A stretch of DNA of 64,000 nt from Candidatus Bathyarchaeota archaeon (GTDB taxonomy: Archaea; Thermoproteota; Bathyarchaeia; Bathyarchaeales; Bathyarchaeaceae), in assembly GCA_963772765.1 (NCBI GenBank), contig CAVYYP010000004.1, positions 4,558 through 68,557 of the forward strand. The letters run 5' to 3'. The notes under the pieces were generated by a model that worked only from the letters and a program-made list of their open reading frames with translations, was not told the origin of the DNA and did no database searches. Below are positions 4,232-57,511 of the stretch, piece after piece (the stretch's first letter is position 1; each line of letters begins with the position of its first letter). Made by a program: the position numbers and the translations under genes.

Positions 4232-4764
4232 GCGAATCAACAAATGAACACAAAAGCAAGGCTCCAAAGAAGCTCAATTTTCATGTCATAATATCAAGTT
4301 CGTCAAGGTATGATCAGTTCAAGAAAAGAGAGATGTTCACTGACCCGTCAGGCGATTTGATTGTTGAACTGATAAAGATTGCAGGTCATAGTGTAGTTTC
4401 GAAGGAGATTTTGCCTGATGACATGTTTCTTTTGGGGAAACATGTTGGAAATGCTATTGGCTCAGAGGATGTTGATGCAATTATCGTGAGTGGTGGAACT
4501 GGAGTCAGCATAACAGATGTTACAATTGAGACGTTAAGGCCAATGATGATTAAGACGCTGCCAGGGTTTGGCGAAATCTTCAGGAAGCTAAGTTATGACG
4601 AGATAGGTTCTGCAGCGATTATGACTCGGGCTTTGGCGGGTGTTGCTGATCAGGGAAAGGTGATTTTTTGTATTCCGGGCTCTCCTCAGGCTGTCAGATT
4701 GGTTATGACAAAGCTGATTCTTCCCGAGACGGGGCATATTGTTAAGCATGCTCGGGAAAAGTAG
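4228..4764 (+). CDS. moaB: Molybdenum cofactor biosynthesis protein MoaB/MogA family
   Basis: IIVSGGTGVSITDVT...LPGFGEIFR...FCIPGSPQAV is the MoCF_biosynth domain pattern. A 4-nt overlap with moaC suggests an operon. Confidence 0.8.
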   Translation: MSESTNEHKSKAPKKLNFHVIISSSSRYDQFKKREMFTDPSGDLIVELIKIAGHSVVSKEILPDDMFLLGKHVGNAIGSEDVDAIIVSGGTGVSITDVTIETLRPMMIKTLPGFGEIFRKLSYDEIGSAAIMTRALAGVADQGKVIFCIPGSPQAVRLVMTKLILPETGHIVKHAREK

Positions 4765-9468: not shown

Positions 9469-10690
9469 TTGTCATTTTCAATTAATGTAGTTATTGTTGG
9501 TAATGGCGTTGCGGGCGTGACATTTGCTAGGACAATAAAGGAGAAAAATCCAAACACAAAGGTTTCGATTTACACAGACGAGAACATCAATTATTATCCT
9601 CGTCCCAGATTGTATGAAATTTTGTCAGGCAAATCAGACCCAGAAGACATTGTTGTGTTCTCAGAGGAATGGTACAAAAAAACAGGGAATCACCGTTCAT
9701 CTAGACAAGAAAGCAGTAAGGATTGATACAGAACAAAAGAAACTGATATTAGATGACAAAACAGAGGTCAGCTACGATAAGCTAGTTTTAGCAAATGGCG
9801 CATACTGTTTTGTTCCACCAACAAAGGGTTCAGAAAAAAAAGGAACTTTCACCCTGCGCAACATCAAAGACGCCATAACGATAAGAGAATATGCAAAAAA
9901 CACAAAGAAAGTCATCATTATAGGCGGCGGACTTCTTGGCTTAGAATTTGCGTTCTCTCTAAGAAAACTTGGACAACAAGTAACAGTTATAGAACTTTCT
10001 CAGAGGCTGCTACCCAGACAGCTGGACAGTGATGGAGCAACAATCTTAAAAGAGCGAATTGAAGCCCTTGACATAAACATTGTTTTAGGAGCCAAAACCT
10101 CCGAAATACTAGGAAAAGAAAACGTTTCAGGAATCTTGCTTGAGAGCGGCAAAACAATCCAAGGAGACCTTGTTTTGATATCTGCAGGAATACGCTGCAA
10201 TATTGAATTAGCAAACAAGTCAGGAATAAACGTCAACAGGGGAGTAATTGTCGATAATCACCTGAAAACCAGTGCCGACAACATATACGCTATTGGAGAC
10301 ATAGCAGAATTCAACGGAACAGTATACGGAATAATTCCAGCTGCTGTAGAGCAGGCAAAAGATGCAGCCGAAAACATACTAACAGACAAAATAAGCTACA
10401 AAGGCACAGTTCCAACTAACACACTAAAAGTCATGGGAATAGACCTCACATCCGTTGGACTCGTAAACCCAGAAGACACAAAATATGAAGAAATCAAAGA
10501 AACAGACAAGAGAAAGGGCATCTACAAAAAACTGGTTCTAAACAAAGGAAAAATTGTAGGCGCAATAATTCTGGGAGAAACAAAACCAGTGCATTCAATA
10601 AAGCGGCTTATTGCTCAAGAAACAGACATAACCAAATACAAAAACTCTATCCTGAAAGACGATTTTGACTACAAAAGAATAACTGCTTAA
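9469..10690 (+). CDS. NAD(P)/FAD-dependent pyridine-nucleotide-disulfide oxidoreductase, split by a 1-nt frameshift as assembled
   Basis: The N-terminal VVIVGNGVAGV (FAD GxGxxG) is in ORF 9469-9726. IIIGGGLLGLEF (NAD GxGxxG) and AIGDIAEF are in ORF 9614-10690. The frames join at the A7 run 9676-9682. Confidence 0.75.
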
Positions 10691-10766
10691 CGTGACATCG
10701 CCATCCCACATGAAAGCTCATCCCGTCACGCCAATGCAGCTACATTTGCAAAAAATGGGCTAAATT

Positions 10767-18290: not shown

Positions 18291-18480
18291 AAATGGAGGC
18301 TTTGTTTATGTGTGTTACGTCTTTGCGTATGTTTTGTTTTTTCCGTTAAGTCCTTGTCAAAAGTTTATTTGTTCACATTTTTTGACAAAATTCTGTTCAA
18401 GGAGCCCATAAGTCAATTTGAGAGTTTAAACTAAAATCAAAAACTTTAAATCTTAAATCAATACTTTAAAAAAGTCAATT

Positions 18481-18582
18481 GGATGGTTGGGACTCGGAGA
18501 ACCACCCCCATTCTCTCTTCGCCAAGAGATTTACCCGCTCTGTGGGCGAACTGCGTGCAATGCGACGTGCTCCCAACCATTT
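18481..18582 (+). ncRNA. Candidate structured RNA (four-way junction), copy 1 of a two-member family; function unknown
   Basis: G+C-rich island with a 10-bp closing helix (18483-18492 / 18571-18580) and three hairpins. TATA-like TTTAAATC lies at 18445-18452 and U-runs follow. It is homologous to the reverse complement of 39209-39322. Confidence 0.6.
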
Positions 18583-18667
18583 CAAGCAATTTTTGAAGAA
18601 AATATCGGAAAGTTTATTTTGTTTAAGATTTGTTTTCCCGTACACAACGTGTCCGCTAAAAAATGTG

Positions 18668-19615
18668 ATGTCCTTCATGATTTACGATAACTGCAATCGT
18701 CCTGTTCTCAATCTGAGAATTTCTGTAACCCAAAAATGTGACAAACATTGCCCTTACTGCCACAGGGAAGGCGAAAGAGAACCCACAACGCTCATGACAG
18801 TAAAAGAGATTCTTCGCATAGTCAGGATAGCAATCAGTCTAGGAATCTCCAGAGTTAAACTCACAGGAGGAGAACCACTTCTTCGCAAAGAAATCGTTGA
18901 AATTGTCAAAGGAATAACTGCCCTAGAGGGCTTGACCGACCTGTCAATGACCACTAACGGCACCCACCTAAAAGGATTGGCAAAAGACTTGAAGGTTGCG
19001 GGACTGGAAAGAGTAAACGTGAGCCTTCCTACGTTAGACCATAAGGTGTACAGTGAAGTCATGGGAGGCAATCTGCAGGATGCTCTTGATGGCATTAAAG
19101 CTGCCGTAGATGCCGGACTAAAGCCAGTGAAGGTGAACATGCTGCTTCTCAAAGAGATAAATGACCAAGAAGTGGAAAAGATGATGCATTTTGCCGCGCA
19201 GACAGGAACAATTTTGCAGATGATTGAATTGGAACCAATTAATCTTGGTAAAGGATACTATGAGAGCCATCATCTTAGCCTAGACAAGGTTGAAGACAAA
19301 CTGGAAAAGGTGGCTGTGGAAAAACGGGTTCGAAAGTTTATGCAAAAAAGACGGGTATATACTTTGCCTGATGTGAAGGTTGAGCTTATTCGTCCAATAG
19401 AGAATACAGAGTTTTGTGCCAGCTGCACACGCATTCGTGTAACTAGCGATGGAAAAATTAAGCCATGTCTTATGAGATCAGATAATTTGGTGGATTTTCT
19501 CACGCCCATGCGAAACGGAGCAGACGACAAAAAAATTTCGGAAATATTTATTGAAGCTGTGAAAAAGCGTGAACCATACTATAAAGTTGCAAAGGCATCT
19601 AAAACTGAAACTTGA
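18668..19615 (+). CDS. moaA: GTP 3',8-cyclase MoaA (radical SAM)
   Basis: LRISVTQKCDKHCPYCH (CxxxCxxC), KLTGGEPLLR and the C-terminal CASCTRIRVTSDGKIKPCL. The likely start is ATG 18668; the ORF track start at 18479 covers the RNA element. Confidence 0.85.
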   Translation: MSFMIYDNCNRPVLNLRISVTQKCDKHCPYCHREGEREPTTLMTVKEILRIVRIAISLGISRVKLTGGEPLLRKEIVEIVKGITALEGLTDLSMTTNGTHLKGLAKDLKVAGLERVNVSLPTLDHKVYSEVMGGNLQDALDGIKAAVDAGLKPVKVNMLLLKEINDQEVEKMMHFAAQTGTILQMIELEPINLGKGYYESHHLSLDKVEDKLEKVAVEKRVRKFMQKRRVYTLPDVKVELIRPIENTEFCASCTRIRVTSDGKIKPCLMRSDNLVDFLTPMRNGADDKKISEIFIEAVKKREPYYKVAKASKTET

Positions 19616-38889: not shown

Positions 38890-39171
38890 ATGCAAACTGG
38901 GGCTCACGTTTTTGTCAGCGGCAGAGTTCAAGGCGTATTTTTCAGGGTAGAGACCAGACGTGAAGCCATTAAACGAGATGTTGTGGGCTGGGTTCAAAAC
39001 ACATCTGATGGTAGAGTTGAAGCGGTTTTTGAGGGCGAAAAAGAAGACGTGGAAGAAATGGTTGATTTCTGTAGACGTGGACCGCCTAGTGCTCATGTTA
39101 CGGATGTGGATGTGCAATGGGGCAACTATTCGGGTTCATTTGAGGGTTTTAGAATTCGTTATACTGACTGA
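38890..39171 (+). CDS. acyP: Acylphosphatase
   Basis: VSGRVQGVFFR...GWVQNTSDGRVEAVFEG...RGPPSAHV is the canonical acylphosphatase signature. Confidence 0.9.
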   Translation: MQTGAHVFVSGRVQGVFFRVETRREAIKRDVVGWVQNTSDGRVEAVFEGEKEDVEEMVDFCRRGPPSAHVTDVDVQWGNYSGSFEGFRIRYTD

Positions 39172-39208
39172 TAGATTGTTCCTAGTTGTCTAAACTGTTA
39201 AGTTAAAA

Positions 39209-39322
39209 GGAGGATGGGGGACTTGGCGCATGCGCGCGTATGCACCGTCGATCGCTCAAGGAGAGGGTAATCTCTTGGCGAATGGAGAACAGGGGTATTT
39301 TCTCGGTGTCCCCTCACCATCC
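39209..39322 (-). ncRNA. Candidate structured RNA (four-way junction), copy 2 of the two-member family
   Basis: G+C-rich island between convergent genes. TTTATAT on the minus strand (39350-39356) lies about 28 nt upstream, and a U4 run follows. Helices GGGGAC/GUCCCC, GAGAA/UUCUC and GGUGCAU/AUGCGCC are present. Confidence 0.6.
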
Positions 39323-39453
39323 ATCAAAATCGACAAAAAGCATACTAGGATATAAACTTATTGTAATTGGAATCCGTATTTTCTGTTTTTGACACACACT
39401 TTTTCTTAACATATTGTTGTTTTTTGCGTTGTTTGTGTTTATTTTTGTTGTTT

Positions 39454-39975
39454 TTAGTTGGGTTGTTGACTGTTGATGTTTTCGCGTTTTTCTTTTTCTT
39501 GTTTTATCGCTGACACGTATTCTGTGAATGTGAGGTCGTGTATGCTTGGATAGTTTTTGATTGTGTATCTGACTTTGTTGAAGAGTTTTTTCATTATCTG
39601 TATCTCTATTATTTTTGAGCCTGTTCCGAAGATGTTCTCGAGAGCTTTTGAGAAGTCTTCAATTCTGCATGGTATGTCTTGGGCATCTATTTTGAACGTT
39701 TTCTCAAGATAGGTGTATATTACCTGTTTTGCTGATTCCCCGATTAGTGAGAGTCCTTCGTCTATTGCTTCTAGAAGGATTTTTTCGAATTTTGCTGGTT
39801 TTTTGTTTGTGCTGTGATTTGTGTCCTTTTGTGGTTTGAAGATTGTTGCTATTTTGTGCGGTAGTTGTGTTGTCTTTGTTGGGTTTGTGCGTAGGTACGT
39901 TTTGTATAAGTACCAGTTTGTTGTGAATGTTGGTGTGTCTTTTTCTTGTTCTGTTGTACTGTTGTTTTGTTCCAT
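39454..39975 (-). CDS. Hypothetical protein (low-complexity T/N/K-rich N-terminus, conserved-looking C-terminal helical domain)
   Basis: ORF. The C-terminal ILLEAIDEGLSLIGESAKQVIYTYLEKTFKI... resembles small archaeal regulator-like proteins (from memory, unverified). Confidence 0.4.
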   Translation of the reverse strand: MEQNNSTTEQEKDTPTFTTNWYLYKTYLRTNPTKTTQLPHKIATIFKPQKDTNHSTNKKPAKFEKILLEAIDEGLSLIGESAKQVIYTYLEKTFKIDAQDIPCRIEDFSKALENIFGTGSKIIEIQIMKKLFNKVRYTIKNYPSIHDLTFTEYVSAIKQEKEKRENINSQQPN

Positions 39976-40153
39976 TGTTCTACCCTAAAACATATAGCAT
40001 ATCTTATCACTTAATATACCATATTTCATTGTGGAATATACTACAAAAACAGAAATATGTACATAAAAGTACATATCATAAACCACGGAAAACAGCAAGA
40101 ATACCCTAAAATAAGGGAAATTATATCTAAACCAACCCAAAGGAGCAACAAAC

Positions 40154-53847: not shown

Positions 53848-53924
53848 GCCTCGGTGGCTCAGCCCGGTAGAGCGGCAGCCTCGTAAGTTGTTGGTCGCGG
53901 GTTCAAACCCCGCCCGGGGCTCCA
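53848..53924 (+). tRNA. tRNA-Thr (anticodon CGU), CCA encoded
   Basis: Hand-folded cloverleaf: acceptor GCCUCGG/CCGGGGC, D arm GCUC..GAGC, anticodon loop CUCGUAA, T arm GCGGG-UUCAAAC-CCCGC. A TATA-like TTAAAAATAT lies about 27 nt upstream. Confidence 0.9.
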
Positions 53925-57434: not shown

Positions 57435-57511
57435 GCCTCGGTGGCTCAGCCCGGTAGAGCGGCAGCCTTGTAAGCTGTTGGTCGCGGGATCAAATCCCGC
57501 CCGAGGCTCCA
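57435..57511 (+). tRNA. tRNA-Thr (anticodon UGU), CCA encoded
   Basis: Cloverleaf: acceptor GCCUCGG/CCGAGGC, anticodon loop CUUGUAA, T arm GCGGG-AUCAAAU-CCCGC. A TATA-like CTTTATAAG lies about 28 nt upstream. Confidence 0.9.

Follow-up and report, generated by a model that had tools for sequence, protein, structure and literature searches.

Small RNAs (sRNAs) that are independently transcribed, restricted to one lineage and equipped with conserved loops are established in Archaea through sRNA41, sRNA154 and sRNA162 of Methanosarcina mazei. Among bacteria, the mycobacterial 6C/B11 RNA reportedly pairs with mRNAs via C-rich loops, and in RsaE/RoxS of the Firmicutes and other sRNAs with a UCCC motif, C-rich loop motifs are reported (Geissmann et al. 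2009; Durand et al. 2015) to pair with G-rich ribosome-binding regions. 6C RNA (RF01066, Actinobacteria) is defined by two hairpins whose loops each carry a run of at least six Cs (PMC1950547). Here we analyse a 64-kb stretch of DNA from a Candidatus Bathyarchaeota archaeon (contig CAVYYP010000004.1, positions 4,558 to 68,557; hereafter the window), which very probably contains a genuine, independent gene for a structured RNA of about 115 nt, read from the minus strand of the spacer between two convergent protein genes. Two hairpins with C-rich loops, H1 and H2, form the invariant core of this RNA. A second copy lies elsewhere in the window; following the preliminary description of this DNA, we call the latter copy 1 and the gene in the convergent spacer copy 2.

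Like 6C RNA, the Bathyarchaeia RNA appears as a free-standing small RNA with two C-rich-loop hairpins (PMC1950547), but its loops hold ACCC(C), with three to five Cs in place of six or more. Its H1 and H2 stems are invariant, whereas those of 6C covary, and 6C is a bacterial RNA that lacks both a closing helix and a four-way junction. The Rfam model of 6C finds no match in the element, whose distribution is in Bathyarchaeia and not actinobacterial. RsaE/RoxS expose similarly short C-rich motifs in their loops, but there is no sequence or model match, and architecture and domain of life differ. The M. mazei sRNAs became known through transcriptomics and genetics and show no homology to the Bathyarchaeia RNA, which is known from sequence alone; set against archaeal trans-acting sRNAs as a class, the conservation of its entire hairpins is unusually extreme.

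Fold of the RNA

The 114-nt sequence quoted in the preliminary description is the exact reverse complement of window positions 39209-39322, and its G+C content is 56%, compared with 42% for the window. In the minimum free energy (MFE) structure of positions 39325-39205 on the minus strand, a closing helix, P1, is followed by three hairpins, H1, H2 and H3, which fall at the positions claimed for them earlier. The gene and its parts are as follows.

39209..39322, minus strand: small RNA gene, copy 2, the ancestral conserved locus of the family (sequence, fold, covariance model, orthologues in 14 distinct related sequences)
39308..39322, minus strand: 5′ strand of P1, GGAUGGUGAGGGGAC, pairing with 39222-39209 (MFE)
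39285..39304, minus strand: H1, GAGAA-AAUACCCCUG-UUCUC, with an invariant stem and an invariant ACCC in the loop
39252..39282, minus strand: H2, with 5′ arm UUCGCCAAGAGA, loop UUACCC and 3′ arm UCUCCUUGAGCGA; the 5′ arm is almost invariant, UACCC is invariant and the 3′ arm varies between paralogues
39225..39246, minus strand: H3, GGUGCAU-ACGCGCGC-AUGCGCC, variable, with a U·G pair; short in copy 1 and absent in L055, a more divergent relative (see below)
39209..39222, minus strand: 3′ strand of P1, GUCCCCCAUCCUCC (MFE, alignment)

The MFE of this fold, −44.4 kcal/mol, compares with −30.3 ± 3.4 kcal/mol for dinucleotide-shuffled sequences (n = 200), giving z = −4.15, and none of the 200 shuffles equalled it. 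P1 (about 13 bp) is present as a helix, but the register in which it was first drawn, GGAUG/CAUCC with a 4-nt bulge, gives way to one favoured by both the MFE and the relatives, GGA/UCC + GGUG/CAUC + GGGGAC/GUCCCC with 1-nt bulges. H2 (about 11 bp) pairs as UCGC-CAAG-AGA / UCU-CUUG-GCGA with two 1-nt bulges. The helices meet in a four-way junction with linkers of 3, 2, 5 and 2 nt. Both the H1 and the H2 loops are predicted to be largely unpaired, with a probability of about 0.6–0.9 for most bases of the H1 loop in the ensemble.

The same architecture is obtained when 19 sequences of three diverged types are folded individually, and RNAalifold returns these four helices from a model-based alignment of 17 sequences. 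Standard pairs fill 95.6% of the pair cells in this alignment, against 40–56% when the 3′ partners are slid by one to three columns. Three pairs of P1 have changed on both sides, the sequence of this helix differing between paralogue types with its pairing kept, and H3 shows U·G, C-G and U-A at alignment columns 89-107 and G-C or G·U at other pairs.

An invariant core of two hairpins

Conservation is distributed very unevenly over the RNA. Across the three types, 34 of the 53 positions of H1 and H2 are invariant, compared with 9 of 65 in P1, H3 and the linkers; P1 and H3 keep their pairing only, not their sequence. Part of the core is the string UUCGCCAAGAGA-(1-3 nt)-UACCC, which comprises the 5′ arm and loop of H2. 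Copy 1, copy 2 and L055 agree fully in this arm and loop; in the 3′ arm of H2 the paralogues differ, and it pairs differently. C-rich loops had been noted in both copies, and they are indeed there: the H1 loop carries CCCC (up to CCCCC in copy 1), the H2 loop CCC, and YACCC occurs in both hairpins. Apart from one U before H2, no position in the four junction linkers is invariant, which argues against a ligand pocket at the junction.

Relatives and conservation

Relatives were sought by exact pattern in GTDB, with one genome per species, and by exact match in metagenomes; such scans skew the census towards close relatives, so that the taxonomic range reported here is a lower bound. The GTDB scan yielded two true matches, both in Bathyarchaeia metagenome-assembled genomes (L006 and L008), along with six chance matches in bacteria. 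The metagenome scan added L022, L076, L087 and L024, near-identical copies of the two RNA genes of the window (L063 and L075; L064 and L073) and a third, more divergent RNA type, L055, which lacks H3 but has both loops. All family members of assigned lineage are on Bathyarchaeia-type contigs.

In every related Bathyarchaeia locus fetched (14 distinct sequences), an orthologue of copy 2 is found in this spacer, facing acyP in convergent orientation. At the nucleotide level, the RNA shares 82–93% identity with its counterpart in the window, as compared with 61–67% for the coding sequence (CDS) of the adjacent 173-aa gene, 66–68% for acyP and 70–76% for arcadin-1. Recurrence at a syntenic site, with conservation far above that of the flanks, confirms at the level of sequence comparison that the element is more than a chance fold, and its divergence is consistent with vertical descent under selection. 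The orthologues also differ by single-nucleotide indels in loops and bulges that would break any reading frame, and a coding sequence was rejected on this ground.

A covariance model of the family scores copy 2 at 143 bits in R1 and 141 bits in R2. With filters off it recovers only two copies in the 64-kb window, at 141 and 66 bits; the next match has 10 bits (E = 1.4). No further copies were found with it in about 275 kb of related DNA from 20 related loci, which have one syntenic copy each, and no copy of the element was found on viral contigs. The earlier description of a two-copy family needs amending: the family exists, as one conserved locus plus sporadic lineage-specific paralogues. A mobile or viral origin was considered and set aside on copy number, synteny and absence from the viral contigs searched.

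The rest of the metagenome matches fell into unrelated tandem repeats and a MoaB/MogA coding motif. The repeats, of about 100–180 bp and containing TTCGCCAAGAGATATACCC, occur in L013, L021, L042, L061, L065, L067, L079 and L085 (Ga0307507/15/18 contigs); they are unrelated to the RNA family, and their flanks resemble repetitive eukaryote-type or other satellite DNA. The coding motif arises when the 18-nt search pattern is allowed a 2-nt gap, which matches GTG(F/L)SPRDxTPE of MoaB/MogA in unrelated organisms (L010, L030, L036, L038, L041 and others). A link to MoaB/MogA was rejected, since the SPRDxTPE matches need a 2-nt gap that is never found in family members; they are a chance finding, if a curious one given that copy 1 lies beside moaA.

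Transcription signals and independence from neighbouring genes

The signals flanking copy 2 resemble those of an archaeal transcription unit:

39350..39360, minus strand: B recognition element (BRE)/TATA-like box AAGTTTATAT, 27 nt before G39322; conserved in the orthologues, copy 1 and L055
39326..39339, minus strand: GCTTTTTGTCGATTTT, a conserved T-rich tract that separates the TATA box from the start
39190..39208, minus strand: candidate termination region, with UUUU directly 3′ of P1 and then a semi-conserved stretch (AAYUYUNGUUUA in relatives)

The TTTATAT that had been picked out upstream of the RNA is present at 39356-39350 on the minus strand, 27 nt before G39322, and its counterpart in copy 1, CTTTAAAT at 18444-18451, lies 29 nt upstream of that copy. 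All orthologues have CAATAA(C/G)TTTATAT (CAATAAC/GTTTATAT, or the AAG/CTTTATAT form), followed at constant distances by a T-rich tract (GCTTTTTGTCGC or GCTTTTTTGACGC) and by TTGATGGATGG, and copy 1 and L055 share the layout TATA-N27-29-GGAYGG. The primary transcript of copy 2 probably starts 1–4 nt upstream of the element, at about 39323-39326. To judge from its position, the T-rich tract looks like a promoter-proximal element that may also terminate the upstream 173-aa gene. At the other end, UUUU (39208-39205) directly follows the RNA, as described before, and copy 1 is followed by a T5 run at 18590-18594; we regard these runs as putative terminators because archaeal RNA polymerase as a rule terminates at oligo-T. 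The signals by which archaeal sRNA genes are recognized, a BRE/TATA box of their own about 25–30 nt upstream and an oligo-T terminator, are thus present in all three paralogue types, where they would define a separate transcription unit. A scan for sigma-70 promoters and intrinsic terminators, which is not applicable to archaea, was uninformative.

The tRNA-Thr(UGU) gene of the window is laid out similarly, with a box ACTTTATAA-N29 before the mature 5′ end and T-runs after the 3′ end. The window has tRNA-Thr genes for two anticodons, CGU and UGU, at 53848-53924 and 57435-57511 on the plus strand, each of which encodes its CCA end; the sequences that trail them (CCAUCCUUUUC and CCAUCUUUUAAAA) are similar to that at the 3′ end of the small RNA (CCAUCCUCCUUUU).

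The preliminary description took the RNA to be free-standing and not a 5′ leader, and both the conserved promoter-like signals and the gene contexts agree with this. No gene follows copy 2 on the strand that it occupies. The genes upstream of copy 1 and of L055 point away from the RNA, so that neither copy can be the 3′ untranslated region (UTR) of any gene, and L022 keeps the RNA and its promoter without the 173-aa gene, so that the RNA is not the 3′ UTR of that gene either.

The assignment to the minus strand depends mainly on the orientation of the putative promoter and terminator. It is also favoured by the folding z-scores, −4.15 for the minus strand and −2.60 for the plus strand. A U:G pair had been put forward as working on the minus strand only; this holds for the G·U pairs at columns 12-121 and 89-107, which are A·C mismatches on the plus strand, but not for the pairing as a whole, which separates the strands weakly.

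Copy 1 and the moaA locus

18481..18583 (approximate), plus strand: copy 1, a lineage-specific paralogue (nhmmer E = 2e-6; covariance model 66 bits)

Copy 1, the only paralogue that nhmmer detects in the window, has the architecture claimed for it: it shares the H1/H2 core of copy 2 but differs in P1 and H3. About 85 nt separate copy 1 from moaA downstream of it on the same strand, CAATT occurs on both sides of the copy, and the conserved promoter of moaA itself, GGAAAAGTTTATYTT, stands between copy 1 and the start codon. Copy 1 is absent from the cupin-moaA spacers of five related loci, one of them in the same assembly as L006. Because the moaA promoter intervenes and orthologous spacers have no RNA, the arrangement indicates that copy 1 is no moaA leader but a duplicate specific to this lineage, which was inserted ahead of the moaA promoter.

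Some of the RNA-less cupin-moaA spacers (L105, ~9860-9935; L106, ~9840-9935; L107, ~4590-4660) have features of their own: a AAAGTTTATGTAGG box on the plus strand, some 130 nt before the moaA promoter, then a short hairpin-capable stretch and a T-run. A further small transcription unit is one possible reading of this region, a distal promoter another.

Copy 1 also affects gene calling at this locus. The longest moaA open reading frame (ORF) of the window (18479-19615, plus strand; protein P0106) begins at a TTG within copy 1 and encodes 378 aa, where relatives have about 312 aa; a public 'MoaA' call of 378 aa exists whose N-terminal extension runs across copy 1.

Flanking genes and synteny of copy 2

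38890..39171, plus strand: acyP (acylphosphatase; Pfam Acylphosphatase, E = 5e-26)
39454..39975, minus strand: 173-aa Bathyarchaeia-specific ORF, upstream of the RNA and co-oriented with it

The coordinates and strands of these ORFs bear out the earlier observation that both point into the spacer that holds the RNA. acyP is convergent with the RNA in all copy-2-type loci. The 173-aa protein has no match in Pfam and no sequence match in the PDB; its homologues form 105 clusters at about 50% identity, from sources naming Bathyarchaeota or Bathyarchaeum. In an AlphaFold model that is confident in part, its C-terminal helical domain resembles PH0832 (PDB 2p9x), an uncharacterised Pyrococcus protein. 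In L022 the gene is absent, the RNA and promoter are kept and the RNA is divergent from SurE; comparison of the loci indicates that the 173-aa gene is dispensable for the presence of the RNA. A functional tie between the RNA and this adjacent protein was rejected, given the lack of a Pfam or PDB sequence match, the uninformative helical-bundle fold and the loss of the gene in L022.

Eight contigs were fetched via homologues of the 173-aa protein. The block SurE <- (TusA ->) 173-aa -> [spacer] <- AcyP <- Arcadin-1 is found in all eight, and in each the spacer contains the RNA. The TusA gene lies between SurE and the 173-aa gene in most related loci and is absent in the window and L098-L103 (compared: window 39976-40153, L008, L091 and L093-L095); in L022 the 173-aa gene is missing too. 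Upstream of the 173-aa gene, positions 39976-40070 on the minus strand of the window and their equivalents in L008 and L091-L103 are strikingly conserved, reading ACATATATCG-TTTT-GTAA-ATAT ... GTATATTAAGTAATAAGATA-AATATGTGTT-GGGTAGAACAATG. This stretch looks like a promoter with a short leader, and possibly includes a regulator-binding site.

Gene callers have also been misled at copy-2-type loci. In L103, a 91-aa ORF (10485-10760) is called over the RNA and the true acyP is left uncalled, and ORFs of 40–50 aa over the RNA in the window are further miscalls.

Comparison with known RNA families

The 4,227 covariance models of Rfam 15 were run over the whole window with cmscan at gathering thresholds, and locally at E <= 10 over 39100-39500 and 18380-18700. 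At gathering score, the whole-window scan returned the two tRNA-Thr genes only. The RNA had been proposed to belong to no known family, and these scans agree: no Rfam 15 model matches within the element at gathering score or at E <= 10, the local scans giving low-complexity noise outside it. In particular, there was no match to the molybdenum-cofactor (Moco) riboswitch or other riboswitch models around either copy. ARAGORN found no tRNA or tmRNA at the element, and full-text searches of a paper library returned no paper on Bathyarchaeia small RNAs, nor the core sequence.

The tRNA cloverleaf shares with the Bathyarchaeia RNA a terminal helix, three hairpins and short linkers, and a length of 7 nt is usual for the H2 loop; the tRNA-Thr genes of the window also have a similar arrangement of promoter and T-run. 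The RNA, however, lacks T-loop and D-loop consensus sequences (no GTTCRANYC-type sequence) and U33, its arms are much longer and H3 is dispensable. The 5S rRNA model RF00001 does not match even at E <= 10, and the element has a four-way, not a three-way, junction. As regards C/D box sRNAs, the 5′ end UUGAUGG comes close to a C box, but neither CUGA nor tandem G·A pairs occur in the RNA, and inspection of the sequence revealed no H/ACA boxes. An association with L7Ae or Sm-like proteins had been suggested; no kink-turn (K-turn) or Sm-site features were seen that would support it. These comparisons suggest a new RNA family of the free-standing small regulatory or structural kind, so far restricted to Bathyarchaeia.

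Proposed function and alternative explanations

The account that we tentatively prefer, at somewhat less than even confidence for the whole, is a free-standing sRNA that acts in trans through H1 and H2. The RNA would be transcribed from its own archaeal BRE/TATA promoter and end at the T-runs. P1 and the dispensable H3 would form a scaffold that clamps the four-way junction and presents the invariant H1 and H2, each displaying a YACCC loop, with H2 adding the invariant strand UUCGCCAAGAGA. The partner of this module could be a G-rich RNA or a protein. As the likeliest mode of action, the C-rich loops may pair with target RNAs at G-rich sites (GGGU/GGGG), as 6C and RsaE/RoxS are reported to do; for loop pairing taken by itself, our analysis warrants at best the same guarded confidence and perhaps slightly less.

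Several observations weigh against this account. Whole stems are invariant, not loops alone, which fits protein recognition at least as well, and the invariant seed is short (ACCC or UACCC). Words complementary to the loops, GGGTA/GGGGT, occur near start codons 9 times where about 5 are expected, a weak excess in a count over loci that are not independent. GGGUAG upstream of the 173-aa gene is not conserved. The RNAalifold covariation term is about 0, the stems of H1 and H2 never vary, so that covariation neither supports nor refutes them, and the double changes in P1 come mainly from paralogues, in an alignment fitted to the model. Nor do the strands separate well by pairing, which fills 95.6% of the cells in the sense and 91.8% in the antisense direction; the antisense strand often reaches an MFE at least as low. 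The fold itself is supported by thermodynamics, by an architecture kept across diverged P1 and H3 and by half-compensatory changes, not by strong covariation. A specific target for pairing by the H2 loop, GGGUAG in the 173-aa gene's leader, was rejected on the non-conservation of that motif. Many genes of this genome look leaderless or have GGAG-type sites, and GGAG is not complementary to ACCC.

A protein-binding role, as a subunit of a ribonucleoprotein, a scaffold or a decoy in which H1 and H2 are recognised by a protein, possibly a dimer, and P1 and H3 hold them in place, is rather unlikely on its own terms but nearly as likely as loop pairing, because whole hairpins and not loops alone are invariant. 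The stems are included in this invariance in three types whose P1 and H3 have fully diverged, H1 and H2 are alike in both stem sequence and loop motif (GAGA-loop-YACCC-UCUC), the promoter is of the kind seen at stable RNAs and nucleotide conservation is very high. Yet UACCC sits at different positions in the loops of H1 and H2, so that the two sites are not equivalent, and inspection of the sequence gave no K-turn, C/D or H/ACA boxes. The sole constantly adjacent lineage-specific protein, of 173 aa, is an unpromising partner, being missing in L022, where the RNA stays, and having an uninformative helical-bundle fold. It is more doubtful still that H1–H2 is the active or recognition centre of an RNA that either serves as the essential RNA component of a so far unrecognised ribonucleoprotein of Bathyarchaeia or acts in trans as a sensor or catalyst.

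The remaining explanations bind the element to its neighbours or to DNA. It is very unlikely that the RNA serves as a cis-antisense partner of acyP through overlapping transcripts, or that the element is the plus-strand 3′ UTR or terminator of acyP. Convergence is universal in copy-2-type loci, the acyP transcript meets no T-run before the RNA gene and may read into it, since on that strand a T4 is first reached within the element (TATTTTCTC, the antisense of H1), and the plus strand also folds well (z = −2.6); but the whole synteny block is conserved, which makes adjacency weak evidence, and copy 1 and L055, without a close convergent gene, have the same core and promoter layout, so the module does not need a neighbour of this kind. 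The minus strand is also indicated by the BRE/TATA box, conserved along with its spacing, and by the G·U pairs described above. The position of copy 1 upstream of moaA and that of copy 2 downstream of the 173-aa gene, each on the same strand as that gene, would suit a cis-regulatory mRNA element, either a riboswitch or leader, such as a molybdenum-cofactor sensor, or a 3′ UTR of the 173-aa gene. This explanation is largely refuted, and we give it hardly any weight: copy 2 faces the 3′ end of acyP with no gene downstream on its own strand, GGAAAAGTTTATYTT separates copy 1 from moaA and five related moaA loci do without the RNA, no riboswitch model matches, the junction nucleotides are not conserved, and L022 has the RNA but not the 173-aa gene. 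Equally remote is an element acting as DNA, whether a mobile element of the miniature inverted-repeat type or a group of palindromes to which proteins bind. P1 does resemble terminal inverted repeats, and in comparison with related genomes copy 1 is inserted DNA, flanked by CAATT; against this stand the single syntenic copy per locus, at 82–93% identity against 61–75% in the neighbouring CDSs, the count of two copies in 64 kb with none elsewhere in about 275 kb of related DNA or on viral contigs, the G·U pairs and half-compensatory changes, which are signals at the RNA level, and the promoter at a fixed distance.

Significance

In anoxic sediments, Bathyarchaeia rank with the most abundant archaea. 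To our knowledge, almost nothing is known of their RNA biology, and the structured RNA families specific to Archaea that we know of are few. The pattern found here, a tight conservation above that of neighbouring proteins, a promoter of the stable-RNA type and an invariant two-hairpin core, usually marks a function that is important to the cell. A covariance model of the family would enable an archaeal census, provide a defined target for work with Bathyarchaeia enrichment cultures and stop gene callers from translating the RNA.

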